Source: Clostridiales bacterium (GTDB lineage Bacteria > Bacillota > Clostridia > Saccharofermentanales > DTU023). From it: a stretch of 64,000 nt of DNA. Positions 5,294 to 39,276 of the stretch are shown one piece after another. Each line of letters opens with the position of its first letter. The first letter of the stretch is position 1. Below the pieces are notes generated by a model, which was not told where the DNA came from, did no database searches, and saw nothing but the letters and a program-made list of their open reading frames with translations. Location of the stretch: assembly GCA_004556455.1 (NCBI GenBank), contig SFGY01000002.1:85902-149901 (forward strand). The letters are read 5' to 3'. Position numbers and translations under genes: made by a program.

Positions 5294-5433
5294 CGTGTCG
5301 CCTGATCACATATTGTGCGCATATAAAGATAATATTTTCCCCATAAAGATATTTTTGTTAATTGTTCAACTTGTACAGATACAGTAAATTAAAAGCACAT
5401 AATTTTTACAAATTGTGTGAAAGGAGCTTCTGT

Positions 5434-6570
5434 ATGAAAAAATATTCTCGAGTATTATCCATCCTGCTATCTCTTGTATTACTGCTGAGCCTTGCGGCTT
5501 GCAGTAAGCCTTCAAACCCTTCGCCTGAGACAAAAACGAAGGGAGAAGAGAGTTCGGAAACACAAGCTGATGTCACAAAAGCCGAAGACAAGAGTAATGA
5601 TCAAGAGGCCGTTGCAGGTAAAGCTGAAGATAAAAGTAAAGGACAAAAGGCGATTGAGGATTACAAAATTGTTCTGATTCTGCCTGGCCCCATCAACGAT
5701 CAGAGCTGGAATGCTACGAACTACGCGGGATTGCTGGCATGCAACAAACAGCTTGGCACCAAAATGGAGTATGTTGAAAATGTCCAGTCTTCAGATTATG
5801 AATCCACTTTCAGAGAATATGCCGAGCGCAAATATGATTTAATTATGGCTGCCGGTTCGCAGTTTGATGAACCTGCAGCTGCTGTGGCTCCCAACTATCC
5901 GGAATCTACCTTCTGTGTGGTGAATGGTTCAAGAGCGGACAGTGAGAACGTGGCCCCCATTTTTCCTAAAGAATATGAAGCCAGTTATCTTGCCGGGATT
6001 ATTGCCGGTTATACCAGCAGCAACGGAAATTTTGCCACAATCGGAGGCTTCCCTAATAAACCGATGGAGCATCTCCTTGATGTTTATGAGGCGACCGCAG
6101 TGCGCATAGCAGGAGAACGCAAGATTGAAGGCGCTAAAGCGACGAGAGCTTATGCGAATAGCTGGGATGATGTAGCGCTGGGCAAACAGATGGCCGCACA
6201 GATGATTGACAGCGGAGCGGATACACTCTTTGTCTATGCCAATGAGGTTGGCCTGGGTTCTATTGAAGCGGCAAAAAATGCGGGCGTCAACTTTGTAGGC
6301 TTTTCCAGTGACCAGAATTCCGTGGCACCAGGGACGGTAGTCGCCTCAGTTCTTTTCGATTTTGAAAATTTCTATGTGTGGGCTATTAAGCAATACACGG
6401 AAGGTCAGCTTCAAGGCAAAATGGTTCATGAAGCAGGGATTAAAGAAGATATCTTTAAGCCGATCTATACTGATTCCATCTCGCAGGAGATTAAAGATGC
6501 TGTTGATCAGGCCGTTCAAGATTACAAAGCAGATAAGACAGATTTAACCGTGCTTTTTAAAGATAAATAA
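5434..6570 (+). CDS. BMP-family (Med/PnrA-like) ABC substrate-binding lipoprotein
   Basis: Start MKKYSRVLSILLSLVLLLSLAAC with lipobox LAAC and RBS gaaaggag. An acidic or low-complexity linker contains duplicated KAEDKS units. The body matches BMP-family proteins (KIVLILPGPINDQSWN...GADTLFVYANEVG). Confidence 0.8.
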   Translation: MKKYSRVLSILLSLVLLLSLAACSKPSNPSPETKTKGEESSETQADVTKAEDKSNDQEAVAGKAEDKSKGQKAIEDYKIVLILPGPINDQSWNATNYAGLLACNKQLGTKMEYVENVQSSDYESTFREYAERKYDLIMAAGSQFDEPAAAVAPNYPESTFCVVNGSRADSENVAPIFPKEYEASYLAGIIAGYTSSNGNFATIGGFPNKPMEHLLDVYEATAVRIAGERKIEGAKATRAYANSWDDVALGKQMAAQMIDSGADTLFVYANEVGLGSIEAAKNAGVNFVGFSSDQNSVAPGTVVASVLFDFENFYVWAIKQYTEGQLQGKMVHEAGIKEDIFKPIYTDSISQEIKDAVDQAVQDYKADKTDLTVLFKDK

Positions 6571-6656
6571 ATTCGAGAGAAGAGCAAGTTAGAATTTTCA
6601 GTGGCGGACAGCGGCTGAATGAAGCTGCTGTCCGCTGTTATTTCAACATAGGAGCG

Positions 6657-8201
6657 ATGAAGATGACGGATATTAGCCCAGGCTGGTCACAAATTGATCT
6701 GTGTCAAATCTCAAAGCGTTTCGCAAGAGTACAAGCCAACGAAGAGGTAAGTTTCTCCATTCATCGCGGTGAAGTTCTGGCGCTGCTTGGCGAGAACGGT
6801 GCTGGTAAAAGTACCATCATGAAAATTCTCTATGGCTTGTATCAGGCAGATAGCGGAGAAATAAAAATTGACGGACAAACTGTAGCCGTGAACGGGCCTG
6901 CAGATGCCTTAAAATACGGCATAGGCATGATCCAACAGCATTTTTCCCTTGTACCAGCCCATACGGTCACGGAAAACATTATTTTAGGTAAGGTTCGGGG
7001 AAAAATTGATTTCCGTGCGCAAGCTGCAAAAATCAAAGAAATTTCAGACCGCTATGGCTTTCCGCTTGAACCCGCTGCTAAAGTCGAAGACCTCGACGTG
7101 GGTATTCAGCAAAAGGTCGAAATTGTCAAAGCTCTTTTTTCTCATACTTCACTTTTAATCATGGATGAACCAACGGCAGTTCTAACGCCACAGGAAGCGG
7201 ATCAGCTGCTCGTCTTTATCCGCCAGTATGCTAAAGATGGGAATGCGGTGGTTTTAATCACCCACAAATTGCGTGAGGTTCTGGATGTTGCTGACCGCAT
7301 AGTGGTTATGCGTAACGGTAAAGTTTGGGGCGATATTCCACGCGCTGAGGCAGATGAGGTGAAGCTTTCCCAAATAATGATTGGACATGAGCTCTCCGCG
7401 CTGCAAAAAAGACATTTTGATCGGGGAACTTCAACAGATAGCGGCCTGGTGCTTGAAAATGTAACGCTTCGTCATCAGAACCTTTGTGTTTTAGATCACA
7501 TCAATTTCAAAATAAATGCAGGTGAAATCCTCGGAATTGCAGGGGTAAGCGGGAATGGACAGGAGGAACTTTGTGAGTTGATCTGTGGCCTCAGATCGGC
7601 GGATGAAGGCGATATTTTCCTTAATGGAGTTCCTTTAAATGGGATGTCACTTCGTGAACGGATGCACCAGGGTATCGGTTACGTACCGGTAGATCGTTAC
7701 CGCGATGCTTTAGTGATGCCAATGAATCTGATGGAAAATCTCTACCTGAAGTCCTCCTTTGATCCTGCATGGCACAACGGGCCGTTTATCAATCAAAAGC
7801 TTCTGACGAGTGAGTCTCAGAAAGCCATTCTGGATTACCAGGTCAAAACTCCTGGACCAGAAATCAGAGCCGGTAGTCTTTCCGGAGGAAATCAGCAGAA
7901 ATGGGTATTGGCAAGAGAAATGCGTCTTGCCCATCATTTGTTAGTGCTGAATCAGCCAACAAGAGGCCTGGATTTAGGGGCGATTCATTATATTCAGGAG
8001 CAGATTCTTGATGCAGCTGCACGGGGTATAGCTATCCTTTTGATATCAACGGAATTATCTGAGATTTTCAAACTGAGTGATCGAATCGGCATCATGTATA
8101 AAGGAAAAATCATGGGTGTTTTTACTCCGGACAGGCTCAATACAGAGAGTGTGGGTCTCATGATGGCCGGTATTATGCCAGCCGATTTAAAAGAAGTATA
8201 G
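6657..8201 (+). CDS. ABC transporter ATP-binding protein with two ATPase domains (sugar/nucleoside-type)
   Basis: 514 aa. Walker A GENGAGKST and a second P-loop GVSGNGQEEL. Signature LSGGNQQKWVLAR. Walker B LLIMDEPT / LVLNQPT. Confidence 0.85.
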   Translation: MKMTDISPGWSQIDLCQISKRFARVQANEEVSFSIHRGEVLALLGENGAGKSTIMKILYGLYQADSGEIKIDGQTVAVNGPADALKYGIGMIQQHFSLVPAHTVTENIILGKVRGKIDFRAQAAKIKEISDRYGFPLEPAAKVEDLDVGIQQKVEIVKALFSHTSLLIMDEPTAVLTPQEADQLLVFIRQYAKDGNAVVLITHKLREVLDVADRIVVMRNGKVWGDIPRAEADEVKLSQIMIGHELSALQKRHFDRGTSTDSGLVLENVTLRHQNLCVLDHINFKINAGEILGIAGVSGNGQEELCELICGLRSADEGDIFLNGVPLNGMSLRERMHQGIGYVPVDRYRDALVMPMNLMENLYLKSSFDPAWHNGPFINQKLLTSESQKAILDYQVKTPGPEIRAGSLSGGNQQKWVLAREMRLAHHLLVLNQPTRGLDLGAIHYIQEQILDAAARGIAILLISTELSEIFKLSDRIGIMYKGKIMGVFTPDRLNTESVGLMMAGIMPADLKEV

Positions 8202-8225
8202 GACAGCACAGGAAAGGAGCTATGA

Positions 8226-9311
8226 ATGGCTAACAAGTTAAACCATCACAACGAAACCACTGTGTTAGTCTGGACGAATGCAGTAGCAGTGAGCTTGGGA
8301 CTGATCATCTGTGGCTTAATGCTCTTATTTTTAAAAATTAACCCGCTTAATGTCTTTGGCCAGGCCTTGAAAACGATCTTTACAGATGCTTATACCGGCG
8401 CAGAAGTTTTTCTAAAAGCAACGCCTTTAATATTTACTGCACTTTCCTTTGCCTTTACCTATAAGGCCAGTCTGTACAATATCGGTGCACAGGGGCAGTT
8501 TTACGCAGGGGCCATCGCCTCAATTGCGCTGTCCCTGCAACTAGAGGGAAAAGTATCAACATTCACACTTTTGCTGCTTTCGCTTCTTGCCGCTTTACTG
8601 GCCGGAGGTTTGATCGGCGGGCTTATCGGTTTTCTGAAAGCTCGCTTCCAGGCTAATGAATTTTTAGTCTCCATGATGTCGACCTATGCGGTCATAGCCT
8701 TCATGAATTATCTTTTGCGGACGGCGCTTAAAGAAAATAAAGGCGAATATCCACAAACTGATGCCCTTGGAAGGGCGGCCTGGATTCCATCTTTTATCCC
8801 GGGAACACGCTTACACTATGGCTTTATTCTCGCCATCCTTACGGCCATAGGTATATGGGTTCTGCTTAACAAAACTCCGTTTGGTTTTCGGGTGCGATCT
8901 GTTGGCTATAATCAGCGGGCCACAGAGCTTGCAGGAATTAAAGCGCCCGCTATCTTTATCATGACCTTTTTTATCAGCGGCGCTTTGTCCGGGATGGCTG
9001 GATTTACCGAAATAAACGGTGTGCAGCATATGCTGATTCAGGACTTTAATCCCTTCATCGGCGCAGCAGGATTGGGCATTGCCATTTTGGCAAATGCAAA
9101 TCCCATCGCCATCATTTTTGCCTCGATTCTTTTCGGTGCACTTTCGGTGATCGGTATGCTCATGGGCAGAATGCCGGGTATTAACGTACCGGCAAGCTTT
9201 GTACCCCTGATGCAGGGCACCGTCATGGCTTTTGTCATCGGAGCTAACTTTTTCCGGATCAAGCTACATATCAAGAGGGAAAAGATGAGAAAAGCAGAGG
9301 AGCTTAAGTAA
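8226..9311 (+). CDS. ABC transporter permease
   Basis: 361-aa polytopic hydrophobic ORF directly after the ATPase. Typical of the BMP/ribose-type permease pair. Confidence 0.8.
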   Translation: MANKLNHHNETTVLVWTNAVAVSLGLIICGLMLLFLKINPLNVFGQALKTIFTDAYTGAEVFLKATPLIFTALSFAFTYKASLYNIGAQGQFYAGAIASIALSLQLEGKVSTFTLLLLSLLAALLAGGLIGGLIGFLKARFQANEFLVSMMSTYAVIAFMNYLLRTALKENKGEYPQTDALGRAAWIPSFIPGTRLHYGFILAILTAIGIWVLLNKTPFGFRVRSVGYNQRATELAGIKAPAIFIMTFFISGALSGMAGFTEINGVQHMLIQDFNPFIGAAGLGIAILANANPIAIIFASILFGALSVIGMLMGRMPGINVPASFVPLMQGTVMAFVIGANFFRIKLHIKREKMRKAEELK

Positions 9312-10293: not shown

Positions 10294-10398
10294 ATGACTT
10301 ATTATGCGAAATCATTACTGCCTAATGGAAAACAGCCCACGGTGGCGGAACATTGTCAAAACGTTGCCGATTTGACAATTAAACAGGTAGATGTCTGA
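10294..10398 (+). pseudogene. Possible 5' stub of a second cas3/HD-domain gene (34 codons)
   Basis: The ATG at 10294 gives MTYYAKSLLPNGKQPTVAEHCQNVADLTIKQVDV*. The Y-AKS...G.Q.T..EH..NVA pattern resembles Cas3 HD N-termini. Similarity ends about 10392, where a minus-strand fragment begins. Confidence 0.3.
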
Positions 10399-10527
10399 AT
10401 CAAATTTCTTTCCCGTTATAGGGTTATAAGGCGGCTTAGTGAGCCTGCCGTTTTCTTGCTGTTCGTACTTCCATGAACAAAAGATATTCTTGTTCTTTAG
10501 TGCTTTTGGTCGTTTCTCCAGATCCAT
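10393..10527 (-). pseudogene. N-terminal fragment of a mobile-element primase-like protein
   Basis: The first ~45 aa of track ORF 10315..10527 (MDLEKRPKALKNKNIFCSWKYEQQENGRLTKPPYNPITGKKFDSD) resemble the N-termini of phage/plasmid primase-polymerase proteins (..F.CWKYE...G..TK.PYNP.TG). The remainder reads through the opposite-strand stub and is not meaningful. Confidence 0.3.
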
Positions 10528-10693
10528 ATTTATCCTCCTTTTCTGGAAGGCTTATCCCTTCTAAAGGTATTTACAAAGAATGAATGGCAAAGGAGGTTTT
10601 TTAATCTGCTATATTCCGATGAAACCAGCTCCTTATATCGTTGGTATATTCACAGAACCGTGATAGCATAAATTAATAAAATAAGGAGGGACT

Positions 10694-10912
10694 ATGGCTG
10701 TTAGTTATAAAAAACTCTTACATCGTATGATTGAAGAAGATATTTCCAATCAGGATTTAATGAGAATGAGCAATATTTCCGCCAACATTATTACGAAACT
10801 ACGCACGGGGCAATATATATCGCTGGAGAAAGTGGAAGGTATCTGCACGGCTTTAAACTGCACACCCAACGATATTTTGGAATTTGTAGCAGAGAAAAAT
10901 CAAAATGATTAA
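10694..10912 (+). CDS. XRE/Cro-type helix-turn-helix regulator (possible R-M controller)
   Basis: 72 aa. HTH ISNQDLMRMSNISANIITKLRTGQYISLEKVEGICTALNCTPNDILEF. Strong RBS aaggaggg. It overlaps the hsdM start by 8 nt. Confidence 0.75.
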   Translation: MAVSYKKLLHRMIEEDISNQDLMRMSNISANIITKLRTGQYISLEKVEGICTALNCTPNDILEFVAEKNQND

Positions 10913-12725
10913 TATAAGAAAACTTGAATCAGAATTATGGGAATCTGCGGATTTATTACGTGCAGGTTCCAAGTTAACATCAAATCAATATTGTATGCCT
11001 GTGCTTGGACTTATTTTCCTACGATACGCATATAGCAGATACAAGATGGTTGAAGCGGAAATCTTAAAAGGACGTCCATCTCGTGGTGGTCAGGTTATGC
11101 CTGTTGAGACAAGTGATTTCGCAGCTAAGAGTGCGTTATATCTTCCTAAGGAAGCACAGTATGATTACTTGTTGAATCTTCCTGAAGATATTTCTTCTGC
11201 AGGACTTGTTAATAAAGACGGTCACTGTATGAATAGTTTAGGAGAAATCGTCAATAACGCTATGCAGCTTATTGAAGATCAGAGTGAACAGTTAGTCGGT
11301 GTACTCCCTAAAAGCTATATGGATTTCTCTGATGAGATTTTATCAGAACTTCTTCGTATATTTAATAACTCCGCGCTTGATGAGGTCGGCGGAGATATTA
11401 TCGGAAGAATCTATGAGTACTTTTTAAATAAATTTGCCAAGAACATCGCATCAGATGATGGTGTTTTCTTTACACCTAAATCTCTTGTAAAGATGATTGT
11501 GAATATTATTGAGCCTACAAGTGGTGTCTTACTGGATCCGGCCTGTGGTTCCGGTGGTATGTTCATTCAGTCCGGGGATTTTGTAAATGCTGCAGGAATG
11601 AACGCTAACAGCACGATGACTTTCTATGGTCAGGAAAAGGTTGAATATAATGCTCAGCTTTGTCTTATGAATATGGCAGTTCATGGACTAACGGGTGTTA
11701 TTAAATCCGGTGATGAAGCTAACAGCTTTTATCACGATGCTCACAACCTTGATGGTTGCTGCGATTATGTGATGGCAAATCCACCTTTCAATGTAGATAA
11801 GGTAAAGGCGGAATCATGTGAAAGTGCGAAACGTTTGCCTTTTGGTATGCCAGGCATTAATAAAAATAAAGAAGTTGGAAACGCTAATTATCTCTGGATT
11901 TCTTACTTCTACAGTTACCTTAACGAAACAGGTCGTGCGGGTTTTGTTATGGCTTCATCTGCCACAGATAGTCAAGGCAAAGATAAAATCATCAGAGAAA
12001 GTCTTGTTAAAACAGGTCATGTCGATGCGATGATTAGTGTTGGGAATAACTTTTTCTATACCAAATCATTACCCTGCTCTCTCTGGTTTTTTGATAAGGG
12101 AAAGGCTGATGCTATCAAGGACAAGGTTCTTTTCATTGATGCAAGAAATTATTATACAGTCGTTGACCGTACGCTTAACGAATGGTCTGAATGGCAACTT
12201 AAGAATATGAATGCGATTGTATGGCTTTATCGTGGAGAAATTGATAAATACTCTGCTCTTCTTCATGAATACCGCTCTGCTCTGGGTAGTGATAAACCTT
12301 TCGCAGAACAGGTACACGAATTATCAGAGAAAGCAAAAGCACTTCGTTCAGAAGCAAAGAAAGCCGTTGAATCAGCTGAAAAGCGTGAAAAGAAAAAGAC
12401 CCAGGAAGTCTACGATACAAAGCTTGCTGAACTTACTGAAATTCTCACAATAGCTAAGGAAGCAAACTGGCTCTATGAAAAATTCGGCGAAGGCGTTTAT
12501 GCTGATGTCCTCGGTCTTTGTAAGCTAGCATCCATTTCTGAGATTGAAGAAAAGGGCTGGTCACTTACTCCTGGAGCTTATGTAGGTGTGGCACCCATTG
12601 AAGATGATGGCGTGGACTTTGAAGAACGCATGGCTGAAATCCATCGTGAATTATTGTCATTACAGGCTGAATCAAATGACTTGATGGATACCATCTCACA
12701 GAATATGAAGGAGATGGGGTTATGA
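10905..12725 (+). CDS. hsdM: Type I restriction-modification methyltransferase subunit
   Basis: 606 aa. HsdM N-terminal domain (LWESADLLRAGSKLTSNQYCMPVLGLIFLRY). SAM motif LLDPACGSGGMF. Catalytic VMANPPFN. Confidence 0.9.
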   Translation: MINIRKLESELWESADLLRAGSKLTSNQYCMPVLGLIFLRYAYSRYKMVEAEILKGRPSRGGQVMPVETSDFAAKSALYLPKEAQYDYLLNLPEDISSAGLVNKDGHCMNSLGEIVNNAMQLIEDQSEQLVGVLPKSYMDFSDEILSELLRIFNNSALDEVGGDIIGRIYEYFLNKFAKNIASDDGVFFTPKSLVKMIVNIIEPTSGVLLDPACGSGGMFIQSGDFVNAAGMNANSTMTFYGQEKVEYNAQLCLMNMAVHGLTGVIKSGDEANSFYHDAHNLDGCCDYVMANPPFNVDKVKAESCESAKRLPFGMPGINKNKEVGNANYLWISYFYSYLNETGRAGFVMASSATDSQGKDKIIRESLVKTGHVDAMISVGNNFFYTKSLPCSLWFFDKGKADAIKDKVLFIDARNYYTVVDRTLNEWSEWQLKNMNAIVWLYRGEIDKYSALLHEYRSALGSDKPFAEQVHELSEKAKALRSEAKKAVESAEKREKKKTQEVYDTKLAELTEILTIAKEANWLYEKFGEGVYADVLGLCKLASISEIEEKGWSLTPGAYVGVAPIEDDGVDFEERMAEIHRELLSLQAESNDLMDTISQNMKEMGL

Positions 12726-13957
12726 GTTTTAATGAAGAATTATTAGATGATTACATTGATATACTCTCTGGTTTCGCTTTTAAAACAAAAGATTTTGTAG
12801 ATAAAGGCGTACCTATTATTAAAATAAAGAATATTAGTCCTCCTTGTGTAACATTAGATGACTTAACATATGTTTCGAATGAGGTGGCTGAAAAACAAAA
12901 GAAATATATTCTTTCCTATGATGATGTATTGATTGCTATGACTGGATCTCATATTAATCAGTGGGCATCTGTAGTAGGCCGTGTTGCAAGAGTAAAGTAT
13001 TATGACTCAACATTATTAAACCAGCGTGTAGGAAAAATAACCATCAAGGATAATGCCGAAGCTGATATAAACTATATCTATTATTATCTTTCTCAGGATA
13101 CGGTAAAAATTGAACTTGCTACTAAAGCAGGAGGTGCTGCAAATCAAGCAAATATAAGTCCAGCACACATTAAAGGTCTATCCTTTCCTTGTCCTGATTT
13201 AGCAACGCAGAACAAAATAGGTAACATACTAAAATCCTATGATGACCTAATCGAAAACAACCAAAAACAAATCAAACTCCTCGAAGAAGCCGCAAAGAGG
13301 CTCTACAAGGAATGGTTTATTGATTTGCATTTTCCGGGATATGAGGATGTGGAGATTGTCGATGGTGTGCCTGATGGATGGACAAAAGATAGAGCAGAAT
13401 GCTTTTTCAAAATTACTATTGGGAAAACGCCACCAAGAGCAGAGAAGCAATGGTTTGTAAATGGAAATGACGGAATTCCATGGATTTCAATATCTGATAT
13501 GGGAAATGCAGGTGTATTCACTTTTAAGACAAGTGAAGGATTAACCGAAGAAGCCATAAAGAAACATAAAATGAAAATTGTTCCGTCTGGAACTATTTTC
13601 GTTAGCTTCAAGTTGACAGTTGGACGAGTTGCAATAGCGACAACAGAAATGTGTACAAACGAAGCAATTGCTCATTTTTATGTTAATGATTCTTTACAGG
13701 CATATACATACTGTTATTTGAGCAATTTTGAATATGATACATTAGGAAATACATCGTCAATTTCAAAAGCTGTAAATTCGAAAATAATAAAGGCTATGCC
13801 ATTTATAATGCCGTCGCAAGGCATAGTTGAAAAATTTTCAGCGATTGTATCCCCTATTTTAAGTGAGATAAAAGTAAACCAAAAAATGTGCAATTATTTG
13901 TCTGAAGCCCGTGACCGCTTATTACCTAAACTGATGAGTGGAGAAATCAAAGTGTAA
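12722..13957 (+). CDS. hsdS: Type I R-M specificity subunit (two target-recognition domains)
   Basis: 411 aa. ATGA overlap with hsdM. Central conserved helix IENNQKQIKLLEEAAKRLYKEWFIDLHFPG and C-terminal LSEARDRLLPKLMSGEI are typical HsdS spacers. Confidence 0.85.
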   Translation: MSFNEELLDDYIDILSGFAFKTKDFVDKGVPIIKIKNISPPCVTLDDLTYVSNEVAEKQKKYILSYDDVLIAMTGSHINQWASVVGRVARVKYYDSTLLNQRVGKITIKDNAEADINYIYYYLSQDTVKIELATKAGGAANQANISPAHIKGLSFPCPDLATQNKIGNILKSYDDLIENNQKQIKLLEEAAKRLYKEWFIDLHFPGYEDVEIVDGVPDGWTKDRAECFFKITIGKTPPRAEKQWFVNGNDGIPWISISDMGNAGVFTFKTSEGLTEEAIKKHKMKIVPSGTIFVSFKLTVGRVAIATTEMCTNEAIAHFYVNDSLQAYTYCYLSNFEYDTLGNTSSISKAVNSKIIKAMPFIMPSQGIVEKFSAIVSPILSEIKVNQKMCNYLSEARDRLLPKLMSGEIKV

Positions 13958-13959
13958 TC

Positions 13960-14340
13960 ATGTCTACTTTTAGTAAAAAGGAATTGATAGAATGTGAACG
14001 TTTAATTGGCATTCGCATTATGCAAGAGGATGCAGAATCGATATATTCTTTGCTGCAAACTGAAAGAGATCCTATTTTTATAATGGAAATTATTCCTTAT
14101 TATGCATTGTTTGTCCAGTCATGCCAAGAGTATATGGGAGAAGATTTATTTCCTAAATCAATAGCGAAAAATTTTAAAGATATTCGCAACCACATAAAGG
14201 CGTATACTGATTGTTTTAGCAAATCTCAAAAACGTGTAGCAGCAATTGATGATGCACAAGATAGAGATTTTAAAGAACAACTCAGATTTGGATTTCTAAA
14301 AAAAAAATATTCATCTGAATTTAGGAACGTACTGGACTGA
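13960..14340 (+). CDS. Hypothetical protein, R-M cargo slot (possibly the N-terminal part of a split gene)
   Basis: 126-aa ORF starting 3 nt after the hsdS stop. It ends 33 nt after an A10 run (14298-14307). I recognise no family. Confidence 0.5.
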   Translation: MSTFSKKELIECERLIGIRIMQEDAESIYSLLQTERDPIFIMEIIPYYALFVQSCQEYMGEDLFPKSIAKNFKDIRNHIKAYTDCFSKSQKRVAAIDDAQDRDFKEQLRFGFLKKKYSSEFRNVLD

Positions 14341-14383
14341 AGAAAAACAGATAATCGGTAATACTCAGCAGTTAGCAGATTTT

Positions 14384-15052
14384 TTGTCGGTCGAAAATGT
14401 ATTAGGCCCTAAAATAAAGGAGAAGAATTACCAAATAGGTTACCATATAGGCTCATTTGTTGCCTCATTCAGAAAAGGATTAGCAAATTCTTCAAATTTC
14501 CCTATTATCGAAAGAGAACGTAAATCAATCTCAATTAACTATTATTGCGATATAAACACAAATAAGAGAAATAATTTGCTTTTTAAAGGTCAAAAGAAGG
14601 AAATAAATTTATTCTATTTACATTTATTGTGCAATATGAATTTCGTTAAGTACATATTGAGACCATTGTTCCTAGATGGAAATATATGGGTTTTCAGGGT
14701 GGAATATATCGTTTCTTATTACACATTACGTGCGTTGGAACGTTTAAAAAACTATACTGAAAACAACAAGGATATAACTATTGAGAGCAAAGAAATCTAC
14801 GATATTCTTAAGTTAGGTAAAGTATTATTTAAGACAAAAGTACGTAATTGTATGATGCATTATAATCTTGAAAATGCAGGAGTCATATCTTTCGAAAATA
14901 TTGATAAACCATTTTATGGAATTATTGAAAAGTGCTTTAATGGAAAGAGTTATCAAGAATATTTAATAGAATTGCATGGGTTGTCTAATATGATAATCGA
15001 TTTTTTAAATAACCAATTTGATTTTTCTAATGTGAAGTTAGAAAGCTTTTAA
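14384..15052 (+). CDS. Hypothetical protein with HEPN-like R-x4-H motif (possibly the C-terminal part of a split gene)
   Basis: 222-aa track ORF with a TTG start and no convincing RBS or ATG. Its frame is open back to the TAA at 14297-14299, which lies inside the A10 run. It contains KVRNCMMHYNL (R-N-x3-H). Confidence 0.5.
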   Translation: MSVENVLGPKIKEKNYQIGYHIGSFVASFRKGLANSSNFPIIERERKSISINYYCDINTNKRNNLLFKGQKKEINLFYLHLLCNMNFVKYILRPLFLDGNIWVFRVEYIVSYYTLRALERLKNYTENNKDITIESKEIYDILKLGKVLFKTKVRNCMMHYNLENAGVISFENIDKPFYGIIEKCFNGKSYQEYLIELHGLSNMIIDFLNNQFDFSNVKLESF

Positions 15053-15069
15053 AGCAAATGGGAGCAACT

Positions 15070-18000
15070 ATGAGCTACGATTATTCCGAAAATATATTAG
15101 TACAAGAAAGTGCCGGTAATCTGCTCCGTGATGAATTAGGCTGGGATGTTCAGTTTGCCTATAATACAGAAGTGCTGGGTAAGAATGGCTCTTTCGGTCG
15201 AGAAAGTTATAAAGATATTCTGCTTGTTCGCTATTTTAAAGAGGCACTTAAAAAGTTCAATCCGTGGATAAATGAAAATCAGATCATTGAGGCACAGCAG
15301 CTTTTAGAAAAGAGATTGTCTACTTCTTCACTGCTACAGCTAAATGAAGAAAAATATTTTTTAATTCGTGATGGTATTCCTGTCACTGTTAAAAAACCAA
15401 ATGGACAAACTGAAACAAAAAAGGCTGCAGTGATTGATTTTCAGAACCCTGATAACAACTATTTCCTGGCAATAAAGGAATTAAAAATCCATGGAGATTT
15501 ATATCGCAGAAGAACTGACATTGTAGGCTTCGTAAATGGTATTCCACTTCTCTTTGTAGAACTCAAGAAAAATACTGTAGATGTTCAGAATGCCTATGAT
15601 GATAACTACACCGACTATCAAGATACCATTCCTCATTTGTTCTACTACAATGCATTCCTAATGCTTTCTAATGGAACAGAGGCTAAGGTCGGTACACTTG
15701 GCAGTAAGTTTGAATTCTTCCATGAATGGAAGCGTCTTGCCGAAGAAGACCAAGGAAGTGTTGCTTTAGAAACAATACTTCGTGGTATTTGTAAGAAAGA
15801 AAACTTTCTTGATTTATTTGAGAACTTTATCTTATTTGACCATTCTAAGGGTCTCACTGCAAAGATACTTGCTCGTAACCACCAGTATCTCGGTGTAAAC
15901 GAAGCGATGAAAGCCTATGCTGAAAGAAAACTTAATGACGGTAAGCTTGGTGTATTCTGGCATACACAGGGTTCAGGCAAGAGCTATTCAATGGTATTTT
16001 TTGCAAAAAAGGTGCGAAGAAAGATAGAAGGAACCCCAACCTTCGTTATCCTTACAGACCGTGATGAACTGAATACGCAGATTAGTGATACCTTTGAGAA
16101 TTGTGGACTTCTTGGTAAAGATATAAAAGCGGCTCAATTTATTGCGACAAGTGGAGATGACCTTGTTGAAAAACTGCAAGGTAATCCAAGCTTCATATTC
16201 ACTCTTATTCAGAAGTTTAATAAACCAAATGCAAAGCCTATATATCCTGATCACGATATTATTATCATGTCGGATGAAGCGCATCGAAGCCAGTATGGTA
16301 TCTTCGCTGATAACATGATAAAGCTGTTACCTACTGCTGCACGCATCGGCTTTACAGGTACGCCATTACTTTCGAGTGATAATATCACTGCTCGTACATT
16401 TGGTGGCTATGTGTCAGTTTATGACTTCAGGAGAGCCGTTGAAGATGGTGCTACAGTACCTCTTTATTACGAAAATCGTGGTGAGAAGATTGTAGATTTA
16501 CACAACCCTGAAATCACGAATCAAATCCTTGATGCTATCGAAAATGCTGACCTTGATGTTGACCAACAGGACAAGCTGGAAACCGAATTTGCAAAAGAGA
16601 TACACCTGCTCACAGCCGAGCCTAGACTGAAATCTATCGCCCAAGATTTTGTGAAACACTACTCTGACTTGTGGACAAGCGGAAAAGCTATGTTTGTTTG
16701 CTTAAACAAAGTTACCTGTGTCCGTATGTATAATTATGTTCAGGAATATTGGAAAGCAGAAATCAAAATCCTAAAAGCTAGTTTAAAAGATGCCGGTCAA
16801 CAAGAGGCTCTTGAACTTGAAAGAAAAATCAAATGGATGAAAGAAACTGAAATGGCTGTTGTAATCAGTCAGGAACAGAACGAAATCCAAACCTTCAAAA
16901 AGTGCAATTTAGACATAAAGACTCACCGTACTAAGATGGAAAAGCGTGAGTTAGATAAAGAATTTAAGGATTCAAAAAATCCGCTCCGTGTTGTATTTGT
17001 ATGTGCAATGTGGCTTACCGGCTTTGATGTTAAATGTCTTTCATGCTTATATCTCGATAAACCATTAAAGGCTCATACACTTATGCAGACCATAGCACGT
17101 GCCAACCGTGTAAGCGAAGGCAAAAGCAATGGTTTGATTATAGATTATATTGGAATCGTAAAAGCGTTAAGAAAGGCTCTTGCAGATTATACTGCACATG
17201 CAGGTGGAAATGGAGGTTCAAACCCTACAATAGATAAGGACGAACTTATTGCTCGTATTATCGAAACTATTGATAAAGCAGATGAATTCTTGAGTGAGCA
17301 TGATTTTGATTTGGAAAGGCTTATCAATGCTTATGATTTTATGAAACTATCCTACCTTCAGGAAGCAGCTAATGCAGTATGCGGTTCGATTGAGGATAAG
17401 AAAACATATACTACATATGCATCTGAATTGAATCGTCTAATGAAATATACTGACAGAGATGATATCAGCGGTCACACTCGTAAACAGTATGAAGCTATTT
17501 CCGCTATTAATGCTGAATTACAGAAAAAACGTAAACACATCAATACCACTGATCTTATGATTGAAATCAATGGGATTATAAGTGCGTATGTTAAGATTCA
17601 GCATACACCTGCTATGCTGGGTGAAGAATCATGCAGATTTGATATCAGTGCAATTGACTTTGACCTTCTTCGCAGAGAGTTTGCAAAGGTTAAGAAAAAG
17701 AATCTGCTTTTAAAGGAGTTAGAGGAAGTAATCCGGCAGAAACTTGACAGTATGCTTTTTGCTAATCCTGATCGAATGAACTATTACGAACGCTATCAGC
17801 AAATTATCGATGATTATAATAGTGAGCAGGACAGAGCCACCATTGAGAAGACTTTCATGGAATTGATGGATTTGGCTAATCAAATGAGCGATGAAGAACA
17901 ACGCTATATCCGTGAAGGCTTTACAAGTGATGAGGAACTTTCTCTTTATGATATGTTATTCCGTGACGATTTGAGTAAAGCGGACATCAAGAAACTCAAA

Positions 18001-18213
18001 GAAGTTGCAGCATCACTACTACAGAAAATAAAAACTAAAATTGCAGAATTTGACCACTGGACAGATAAGCAGGAAACAAAAGCAGCTATTGATAATCTTA
18101 TTCGTGATACCCTTTGGGAAGAATTGCCGGAGTGTTACGATGAGCTTAGTATCTCTTTGTATCGTCAGCAGATTTATGAATATGTATATACTCGATATAA
18201 AGAAGTTGCTTAA
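15070..18213 (+). CDS. hsdR: Type I restriction enzyme R subunit (helicase/endonuclease)
   Basis: About 1047 aa from MSYDYSEN (RBS gggag); the track start at 15058 is also possible. Nuclease region DIVGFVNGIPLLFVELKK. Helicase motifs HTQGSGKS, IIIMSDEAHRSQ, GFTGTP. C-terminal TQTIARANRV. Confidence 0.9.
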   Translation: MSYDYSENILVQESAGNLLRDELGWDVQFAYNTEVLGKNGSFGRESYKDILLVRYFKEALKKFNPWINENQIIEAQQLLEKRLSTSSLLQLNEEKYFLIRDGIPVTVKKPNGQTETKKAAVIDFQNPDNNYFLAIKELKIHGDLYRRRTDIVGFVNGIPLLFVELKKNTVDVQNAYDDNYTDYQDTIPHLFYYNAFLMLSNGTEAKVGTLGSKFEFFHEWKRLAEEDQGSVALETILRGICKKENFLDLFENFILFDHSKGLTAKILARNHQYLGVNEAMKAYAERKLNDGKLGVFWHTQGSGKSYSMVFFAKKVRRKIEGTPTFVILTDRDELNTQISDTFENCGLLGKDIKAAQFIATSGDDLVEKLQGNPSFIFTLIQKFNKPNAKPIYPDHDIIIMSDEAHRSQYGIFADNMIKLLPTAARIGFTGTPLLSSDNITARTFGGYVSVYDFRRAVEDGATVPLYYENRGEKIVDLHNPEITNQILDAIENADLDVDQQDKLETEFAKEIHLLTAEPRLKSIAQDFVKHYSDLWTSGKAMFVCLNKVTCVRMYNYVQEYWKAEIKILKASLKDAGQQEALELERKIKWMKETEMAVVISQEQNEIQTFKKCNLDIKTHRTKMEKRELDKEFKDSKNPLRVVFVCAMWLTGFDVKCLSCLYLDKPLKAHTLMQTIARANRVSEGKSNGLIIDYIGIVKALRKALADYTAHAGGNGGSNPTIDKDELIARIIETIDKADEFLSEHDFDLERLINAYDFMKLSYLQEAANAVCGSIEDKKTYTTYASELNRLMKYTDRDDISGHTRKQYEAISAINAELQKKRKHINTTDLMIEINGIISAYVKIQHTPAMLGEESCRFDISAIDFDLLRREFAKVKKKNLLLKELEEVIRQKLDSMLFANPDRMNYYERYQQIIDDYNSEQDRATIEKTFMELMDLANQMSDEEQRYIREGFTSDEELSLYDMLFRDDLSKADIKKLKEVAASLLQKIKTKIAEFDHWTDKQETKAAIDNLIRDTLWEELPECYDELSISLYRQQIYEYVYTRYKEVA

Positions 18214-18238
18214 CTGAAATATTATAAGCAATTTCATA

Positions 18239-18258
18239 CATAAAGATATATACCCAGT
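18239..18258 (+). repeat. 20-bp direct repeat, copy 1 (cataaagatatatacccagt)
   Basis: Exact match to 18570-18589. Lies 25 nt after the hsdR stop and 13 nt before the first CRISPR repeat. Confidence 0.8.
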
Positions 18259-18271
18259 TCTGTGTGTTCCT

Positions 18272-18434
18272 GTCGCCCCTCGCGCAGGGGCGTGAATTGA
18301 AATGCGTCAAAAGTCTTGGAGACAGAGCCCGCCGCGTCGCCCCTTACGCAGGGGCGTGAATTGAAATCTTAAATTAATATCCATTACAAGGACAAGATCC
18401 CTGTCGCCCCTCACGCAGGTGCGAGAATTGAAAT
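18272..18434 (+). CRISPR. Short degenerate CRISPR array: three 32-bp repeats, spacers of 32 and 35 bp
   Basis: Repeats are at 18272-18303 (gtcgcccctcgcgcaggggcgtgaattgaaat), 18336-18367 (gtcgccccttacgcaggggcgtgaattgaaat) and 18403-18434 (gtcgcccctcacgcaggtgcgagaattgaaat). They have an internal palindrome GCCCCT/AGGGGC and an ATTGAAAT 3' end, which resembles type I-C repeats. Confidence 0.8.
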
Positions 18435-39185: not shown

Positions 39186-39276
39186 GGAAGCGTAGCGAAG
39201 AGGCCGTAACGCGCCGCTCTCGAAAAGCGGTTGCCGGGTGACCGGCACGTGGGTTCGAATCCCACCGCTTCCGCCA
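39186..39276 (+). tRNA. tRNA-Ser (anticodon CGA), CCA encoded
   Basis: Acceptor GGAAGCG/CGCTTCC plus discriminator G plus CCA. Anticodon stem CCGCT/AGCGG with loop CTCGAAA. Long variable arm TTGCCGGGTGACCGGCAC. T-arm GTGGG-TTCGAAT-CCCAC. 91 nt. Confidence 0.9.

Follow-up and report, generated by a model that had tools for sequence, protein, structure and literature searches.

A Frameshifted, Poly-A-Tract-Bearing Passenger Gene of an Undescribed Bacillota Family in a Type I Restriction-Modification Operon

Introduction

Genes embedded in type I restriction-modification (R-M) operons have proved elsewhere to be defence genes (PMC11411939). Embedded genes include the rlo genes of Campylobacter (e.g., RloF), TgvAB of V. 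cholerae and PrrC of E. coli. Here we describe a gene in the same position, between hsdS and hsdR in a 64,000-nucleotide (nt) stretch of a Clostridiales bacterium (contig SFGY01000002.1, positions 85,902 to 149,901; hereafter “the window”), that is interrupted in the window by a frameshift at a run of ten A. Like the embedded genes already described, this cargo gene is co-oriented with the hsd genes and tightly packed between them, and about 14 related species genomes retain it in this position, the slot common to typical cargo (PMC11411939). Unlike them, it has no sequence or profile similarity to rlo, TgvAB or PrrC, no DUF262/GmrSD domain and, in contrast to PrrC and RloC, no ATPase domain; it is also a single gene and is found alone on mobile elements.

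The pattern R-polar-x3-H is that of HEPN RNases, and the HEPN RNases of abortive-infection (Abi) and toxin-antitoxin systems (Abi_2 AbiD/F, DUF4145, HepT-MntA, RnlA) offer a second comparison. The cargo protein likewise has R-[N/S/G]-x3-H in an alpha-helical bundle, is near AbiD/F and RnlA in size and occurs in a defence-type context. Unlike these enzymes, it shows no consistent Pfam HEPN match among 88 family members (E ≤ 1), its motif is modeled in a short helix with a long loop after it, and another invariant arginine, R76, belongs to a different bundle at the N terminus.

Phase-variable type I R-M systems, with repeats in hsdM, hsdS or hsdR, and phasevarions have their reading frames toggled in the same way by mononucleotide runs of at least nine, the accepted threshold for phase variation (PMC7383803). 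Here, by contrast, the repeat lies in the passenger gene and leaves methylation specificity untouched, is poly-A rather than the usual poly-G/C, and originated recently by a codon deletion, with no sign of selected maintenance found. Runs of at least nine A also lead to transcriptional slippage in many bacteria, and slippage-rescued poly-A frameshifts in Thermus dnaX, insertion sequence (IS) elements and endosymbiont genes resemble the present case in having an A9-A12 run within the gene (PMC1088944); unlike in those genes, the out-of-frame arrangement is not conserved, and rescue is hypothetical. A type I R-M passenger and homopolymer frameshift switching are thus both known in kind, and what is new is the protein family, which is undescribed.

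Results and Discussion

A Single Gene Split at a Poly-A Tract

Two open reading frames (ORFs) lie between hsdS and hsdR, and the stretch that they span, 13960-15052, reads as a single gene rather than two. Its parts are as follows:

13960..15052, + strand: cargo gene of an unannotated Bacillota family, 363 codons in its A9 form, frameshifted here
14298..14307, + strand: A10 homopolymer, the +1 frameshift site (alleles A9 on, A10 off, A11 off, A12 on, A5TA5 off)
13960..14340, + strand: ORF1 (ATG at 13960, TGA to 14340), truncated product of 126 amino acids (aa)
14300..15052, + strand: ORF2 frame (TAA to 15052), central and C-terminal parts of the protein, 222 aa from TTG 14384

A preliminary description, made from the sequence of the window by itself, had pointed to the A10 run at 14298-14307, the 126- and 222-aa ORFs, the TAA at 14297-14299 and the continuous 363-codon frame (13960..15052) that results when one A is removed, and we found all of these in the sequence. 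The ORF1 product ends in a 10-residue out-of-frame tail, which is preceded by the tract-encoded lysines and, before them, by 113 native residues of the N-terminal bundle (including R76). Behind the TAA at 14297-14299 the frame of ORF2 is open, and its earliest start codon, TTG 14384, follows the ORF1 stop after a gap of 43 nt. The same description held that ORF2 lacks a ribosome-binding site; indeed, no Shine-Dalgarno-like sequence was found 5' of the candidate starts in this frame (TTG 14384, 14576 and 14627, ATG 14636), and since it has no such site of its own, this part of the protein is probably not translated in the A10 state.

When the A9 fusion was used as query against 5.8 billion proteins, 258 relatives were recovered, nearly all 359-364 aa long. 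Two of them, P0001 and P0002, are intact at 363 aa and match the fusion at 100% identity; four independent assemblies (L001-L004), all with the same operon synteny, encode P0001. L001 matches the whole neighbourhood of the window (ABC-transporter permease genes, HTH, hsdM, hsdS, cargo, hsdR), while over the 1.09-kb gene the window differs from L002, L003 and L004 by a single extra A and 0 single-nucleotide polymorphisms (SNPs). These intact proteins, together with the Pfam assignments of the flanking genes, bear out the earlier proposal of one gene in the hsdS-hsdR cargo slot split at an A tract. The two “hypothetical proteins” are one frameshifted gene, and annotation should merge and flag them.

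An exhaustive profile search extended the family to 350 clusters at 50% identity (E ≤ 0.001), all single proteins of ~360 aa with no fusions. It is confined to Bacillota (Lachnospiraceae, Oscillospiraceae, Erysipelotrichaceae, Parvimonas, Listeria, Granulicatella, Gemella), and PGAP names its members “hypothetical protein.” Plasmid and phage collections contributed two distant “hypothetical protein” matches and no phage match.

The comparative data matter here because neither the tract nor the R-x4-H motif that had drawn attention to the locus is significant alone. Although the A10 run is the window's sole homopolymer of at least nine, at least one A10 arose in 66 of 100 shuffles of the 64 kb, and R-x4-H is expected 0.26 times by chance in 363 aa.

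Length Alleles and Origin of the Tract

Both fragments are common in public assemblies, and exact-sequence look-ups of the two, after which the contigs were fetched, yielded 20 further copies whose identity to the window is at least 99.6%. The alleles are:

A9, in frame: L001-L004, L084
A10, out of frame: window, L005, L055, L073-L077
A11, out of frame: L056, L078-L082
A12, in frame (364 aa, KKKN): L083
A5-T-A5 (11 nt), out of frame: L057

With the window included, the tract is out of frame in 15 of the 21 copies and in frame in 6, a ratio that is not a population frequency because the look-ups favoured fragments. The comparison of orthologous loci that had been proposed as a check therefore gives not a uniform A10 but intact genes with A9 or A12 and split ones with A10 or A11. 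The split itself varies, as A11 alleles end ORF1 differently, at 119 aa. In L057 (SRR29249380) the tract is interrupted (AAAAATAAAAA, 11 nt, out of frame), an allele that should be less slippery and effectively locked off.

Outside the tract, the 1,083 bases of the gene contain 11 variable sites that define four haplotypes, of which H1 carries A9 and A10, H2 carries A10, A11 and A12, H3 carries A9 and A10, and H4 carries A11; those bearing A9, A10, A11 and A12 differ by 0-5 SNPs. At least four length changes have taken place within haplotypes (one in H1, two in H2, one in H3) against 11 variable sites over the same period, so that the tract mutates much faster than by point mutation. A scan of JGI metagenomes for the tract context gave zero matches.

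The nearest sister lineage (P0003-like, 95% DNA identity) reads CTA AAA AAA TTT AAT at this point, that is, A7. The window lineage is without that TTT codon, which joins A7 to AA and gives A9, and in more distant relatives the run is A7 or shorter, or absent. By this comparison the tract is young, lineage-specific and made by a one-codon deletion.

Conserved Residues and Predicted Fold

Two conserved basic motifs stand out in the protein:

14185..14199, + strand: R76-N-H-I-K80, second conserved basic motif, N-terminal bundle
14843..14860, + strand: R295-N-C-M-M-H300, R-x4-H motif (R295 at 14843-14845, H300 at 14858-14860)

KVRNCMMHYNL, singled out in the preliminary description for its R-x4-H, is present and contains the sole R-x4-6-H of the protein. 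Conservation was computed over 88 sequences with a mean column identity of 27%; R76 and H300 are invariant in this set, K80 is 96% conserved, and K80, G122, N134, T135, D197, N199, Y249, R295, Y301 and G320 all reach at least 90%. Across about 90 diverse members, H300 is conserved in 97-100%, R295 in 93%, and C297 and Y301 in 88%. The family signature is F-R-[N/S/G]-C-M-M-H-Y, with position 296 mostly N, S or G and rarely K or Q, so that a polar residue follows the R of R-x4-6-H as in HEPN proteins. Fixed polar residues scattered over ~360 aa indicate an enzyme, and we infer a catalytic role for the R-x4-H motif.

In the AlphaFold2 model (pLDDT 87.7, pTM 0.89) the fused protein forms a single compact unit. 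Four helices make up its N-terminal part (residues 6-106), the central region contains three short strands, and residues 213-350 form a C-terminal helical bundle; residues 114-116, where the reading frame shifts, lie just past the N-terminal bundle. Modeled alone, the C-terminal 159 residues, which carry the R-x4-H motif, again form a helical bundle (pLDDT 86.5). The protein is soluble, with a GRAVY of -0.31, a maximum hydropathy of 1.16 in any 19-residue window and no transmembrane segment.

The window protein had no match in Pfam (HEPN_*, Abi_2, Abi_C, DUF4145 and NTase_sub_bind included, E ≤ 1), NCBIfam or PADLOC (PADLOC-DB v2, v2.0.0). Isolated matches among the 88 members comprised one HEPN_RES_NTD1 at E = 0.056 and scattered single PADLOC matches at E ≥ 0.004. 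A profile search of PDB sequences returned one chance match (E = 1.2), and Foldseek with the C-terminal domain found nothing in the PDB below E = 1.9; the HEPN toxins 7ae9 and 7bxo appeared there among generic four-helix bundles (E ~3, probability ≤ 0.12, TM 0.25-0.33).

Other identities were tried and rejected. The top full-length Foldseek matches were to membrane proteins, which the hydropathy values rule out. A tandem HEPN arrangement, with R76-N-x-x-K as a degenerate copy of R295-N-x3-H, found a probability of 0.3% when the N- and C-terminal halves were compared by hhalign, and a relationship to RnlA likewise gave 0.3%. The preliminary description had also mentioned PrrC/RloC-type nucleases as occupants of this slot; that identity is excluded because the protein has no ATPase domain (no P-loop/ATPase family match in Pfam or NCBIfam). 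Its other suggestion, a HEPN-type Abi effector, stays a reasonable hypothesis: the R-x4-H is conserved and surely functional and lies in a C-terminal helical bundle, but no profile of HEPN, Abi or DUF4145 matches and Foldseek gave nothing significant. A HEPN-like RNase is the first candidate, although we put it at somewhat less than even odds; we lean towards an enzymatic defence effector of some kind.

Genomic Contexts of the Family

Context was surveyed in the first 54 loci, comprising five near-identical copies and 49 species-representative genomes. The hsdS-hsdR slot is occupied by the gene in about 19 of the 54, namely in each of the five near-identical copies and in 14 of the 49 species genomes, and the homologues found there all have at least 52% identity. 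In its co-orientation, minimal spacers and position common to relatives, it has the characteristics of type I R-M cargo. Further passengers in this slot, seen in several of the loci, are a KAP NTPase, an AAA-Fic fusion, FRG, YhcG/DUF1016 and Fic. At the corresponding loci (L021 2313-4307; L024 7202-9515; L009 5081-5983; L014 2340-3392; L007 5099-5989) these are a KAP-family NTPase, an AAA_15/AAA_21-Fic fusion, an FRG-domain protein, a YhcG PDDEXK/DUF1016 protein and a Fic protein; two small slot proteins of 213 and 195 aa have no Pfam match.

Elsewhere the neighbours are Tn916-type and other integrases, serine recombinases, resolvases, Mob_Pre relaxases and a type IIG R-M enzyme, and defence neighbours include Gabija GajA, PARIS AriA, PADLOC candidate systems (PDC) and AbiEii-like ATPases. 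This distribution is that of an accessory gene which is self-sufficient and of the defence or addiction type. A distant subclade at 27-30% identity (L046-L052, ~5400-9200) lies on what looks like a small, conserved integrative mobilisable element inserted beside a truncated EPSP synthase gene; next to the fragment of that gene come the cargo homologue, an HTH_36 protein and a Mob_Pre relaxase.

Reversible Switching or Decay

Taken together, we think it quite probable that the locus is a single ~363-codon passenger gene, restricted to Bacillota, whose alleles are made by slippage and which is off in the window, and that it encodes what is likely a stand-alone defence enzyme. In this reading the gene rides in a low-GC type I R-M operon obtained by horizontal transfer. 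A one-codon deletion in this lineage created an A9 run within the gene, and replication slippage at the run produces alleles in frame (A9, A12) and out of frame (A10, A11). In the A10 allele of the window, translation would end at 14340 after 126 aa with loss of the part that carries R295-x4-H300, although transcriptional or ribosomal slippage on A10 might allow a leak, with a minority of A9 transcripts giving a trickle of full-length protein. The A10 state would also leave ~730 nt untranslated ahead of hsdR, where the GGGAG of hsdR should still permit initiation. The product would be a stand-alone enzyme of the abortive-infection type with an active site formed by R76, H300 and R295. The tract would serve as a de facto on/off switch that is reversible in one step, one of accidental origin rather than an old selected contingency locus. 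The single gene, its frameshift, the polymorphism of the tract, the conservation of the family and its genomic contexts are shown by the data, while the defence role, the catalysis by the motif, the cost of expressing the protein and the leak are inferred.

The run appears to behave as a reversible on/off switch because the A9 to A10 change is reversible in one step and because the in-frame A12 occurs on a haplotype that also has A10 and A11. By the criteria used for phase-variable genes, there is a mononucleotide repeat of at least nine within the coding frame, and its length differs among close strains and toggles the frame; maintenance of the tract over evolutionary time in orthologues is not seen.

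A more specific proposal, which we consider rather improbable as a whole, is that this is an undescribed single-protein abortive-infection family with a fold absent from the PDB and an active site combining R-x4-H with a second arginine (R76) from the N-terminal bundle. The newborn tract would set its dosage both by DNA slippage (heritable on/off) and by RNA-polymerase or ribosome slippage (low leak), and the off state might lower hsdR restriction through premature termination while modification was untouched.

Several observations weigh against the reading of a slippage-switched defence enzyme. With regard to the tract, its lack of conservation across the family speaks against an evolved contingency locus; its variation is known from comparison among assemblies; frame restoration is represented by one A12 allele only (L083); and samples apparently from the same study carry one allele (three A10, five A11), so that switching is not extremely fast. 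With regard to function, the 88 diverse members gave nothing consistent in Pfam, PADLOC or PHROGs, Foldseek with the full model found nothing below E = 0.8 in PDB or BFVD, homology searches provided no support for defence or RNase activity, and many distant-relative loci are without an obvious defence neighbour.

The strongest competitor is plain decay, in which the gene is a dying pseudogene, the poly-A run its easiest break point and the off alleles dead ends. We regard this as unlikely. In its favour, off alleles outnumber on alleles by 15 to 6, the tract of L057 is interrupted at an out-of-frame length, the tract is lineage-specific, and there are lesions other than those in the tract. A secondary slippage site is the A6 run at 14746..14751 (+ strand); L084 has the A9 tract, yet this run is A7 and the protein is truncated at 266 aa. 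In the sister lineage, L058 has A7 shortened to A6, L063 a 1-nt deletion elsewhere, and L064 an early stop together with T6 lengthened to T7. In P0285 (an ENA contig, 415 aa), the N-terminal half of HsdS is joined in frame to the cargo from residue ~150, and the C-terminus is altered; here a deletion evidently took the 3' end of hsdS and the 5' end of the cargo of a P0003-like copy. Shortened or split copies are also apparent in several of the 49 species genomes (e.g., L043, L045, L051). The dN/dS, finally, is 0.42 for the two closest lineages, the youngest comparison.

Against decay, the window copy has no other lesion and 0 SNPs relative to the intact L002-L004, and the in-frame A12 on the A10/A11 haplotype resembles frame restoration. 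The dN/dS of 0.10-0.26 in older comparisons, moreover, points to long-term purifying selection on the family as a whole. The preliminary description had listed a slipped-strand switch, a recent pseudogene and a sequencing error, and the truth lies between the first two: the hypermutable tract and the in-frame A12 agree with a switch, the lineage-specific, off-dominated tract and the other lesions with a pseudogene, while an error specific to the window is unlikely (below). The excess of off alleles and the second-site lesions suggest that the active protein is costly. Our reading is that the protein is functional and conserved over long times, that in the window's clade it has been repeatedly silenced, as would be expected of a costly or conditionally useful gene, and that the poly-A run is now the main route.

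The remaining explanations concern the role of the protein or the status of the A10 allele. It is rather unlikely, in our judgement, that the protein is neither a nuclease nor a defence factor but an accessory of the R-M system or the mobile element (a regulator, an anti-restriction protein or a maintenance factor) with R..H as a binding motif. Consistent with such a role, it has no homology to any nuclease or defence family, and the family is found mostly on mobile elements rather than in R-M operons. However, about a dozen invariant or near-invariant polar residues over 360 aa are typical of an enzyme active site, and neighbour clustering found no constant partner across loci beyond hsdM, hsdS and hsdR in close relatives.

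The A10 form could also be the expressed state, with the full-length protein made by programmed slippage during transcription or by sliding of the ribosome, as in Thermus dnaX or IS elements. Runs of at least nine A do yield heterogeneous transcripts in many bacteria (PMC1088944), and no allele in the sample set is commoner than A10, but this explanation is very unlikely: all other homologues are in frame, conservation of an out-of-frame form is not seen, there are A9 and A12 alleles, and slippage efficiency depends on the organism. Leakage from A10 is plausible; programming is not indicated.

A homopolymer sequencing or assembly error in the window, with A9 in the true genome, is highly improbable. 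The contig is metagenome-assembled, 10-nt homopolymers are error-prone on some platforms, and the window is otherwise identical to A9 copies; however, A10 is found in seven other independent assemblies and on three haplotypes, and distinct A11 and A12 alleles exist. Since the contributing assemblies come from several pipelines, including ones with MEGAHIT k141-style contig names and Logan contigs, and these agree, an error specific to the window is unlikely. That the 126-aa N-terminal bundle and the 222-aa C-terminal part are both functional as a split gene is extremely improbable: gene finders call both ORFs in many assemblies and the C-terminal 159 residues fold confidently alone in silico, but ORF2 starts without ATG or Shine-Dalgarno-like sequence after its 43-nt gap, intact homologues are the rule, and the different ORF1 end of A11 alleles means that the split is not fixed.

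If the defence role holds, the family is a new and fairly widespread candidate single-gene defence system of gut and skin Bacillota, not covered by any of the four libraries searched (Pfam, NCBIfam, PADLOC-DB v2.0.0 and PHROGs), and R76, R295 and H300 are clear targets for mutation. The natural A9-A12 series on near-identical backgrounds would show a homopolymer that arose from one codon deletion becoming a switch, a rare view of a contingency-like locus being born. A candidate defence gene that is repeatedly silenced in the wild also bears on the cost of abortive-infection genes.

The Surrounding R-M Operon

The gene order HTH-hsdM-hsdS-cargo-hsdR is, by Pfam, a complete type I R-M operon:

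10694-10912, + strand: HTH_26 protein, 72 aa (Pfam HTH_26, 1.7e-17), candidate operon regulator
10905-12725, + strand: hsdM (Pfam N6_Mtase, 5e-73, and HsdM_N)
12722-13957, + strand: hsdS (Pfam Methylase_S, 6e-26), stop 2 nt ahead of the cargo ATG
15058-18213, + strand: hsdR ORF (Pfam HSDR_N, SWI2_SNF2, T1R_D3-like, T1RH-like_C)

The likely start of hsdR is ATG 15070, with GGGAG just 5', 17 nt past the cargo stop. The HTH_26 gene (Cro/C1-type), which shares 8 nt with the beginning of hsdM and is conserved in L001 and L013, occupies the place that regulators of type I R-M islands, such as RptR, take (PMC12255303). A promoter/terminator scan of the locus gave no internal signal above chance, and an Rfam scan of the cargo locus found no family.

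The operon (window 10300-18400) has a low GC of 0.30-0.40, against 0.45-0.50 in the flanks, and the cargo gene, at 0.29, is its most AT-rich portion; it lies directly 3' of two BPD_transp_2 ABC-permease genes. The HsdM of the window clusters at 90% identity with proteins of Finegoldia magna and Anaerococcus jeddahensis; this suggests that the operon was recently transferred horizontally among Bacillota.

Operons with near-identical cargo and hsdR differ in hsdS, which encodes 411, 406 or 408 aa among those compared (L005, L055, L083, L078 and the window), and identity between such operons falls to 51-73% upstream of the cargo; these differences fit swapped target-recognition domains. In L004, hsdS (1092-2326) is split into 297 + 114 aa, and in the sister lineage L068 (95% identity) it encodes 397 aa. 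The hsdR gene 3' of the intact P0003-type cargo in L069 (2077-3079) is called as two pieces of 160 and 166 aa, and the R-M system itself may thus be decaying in some copies. Outside the operon, a tRNA gene at 39186-39273 (+ strand) is the sole Rfam match in the window at the gathering threshold.

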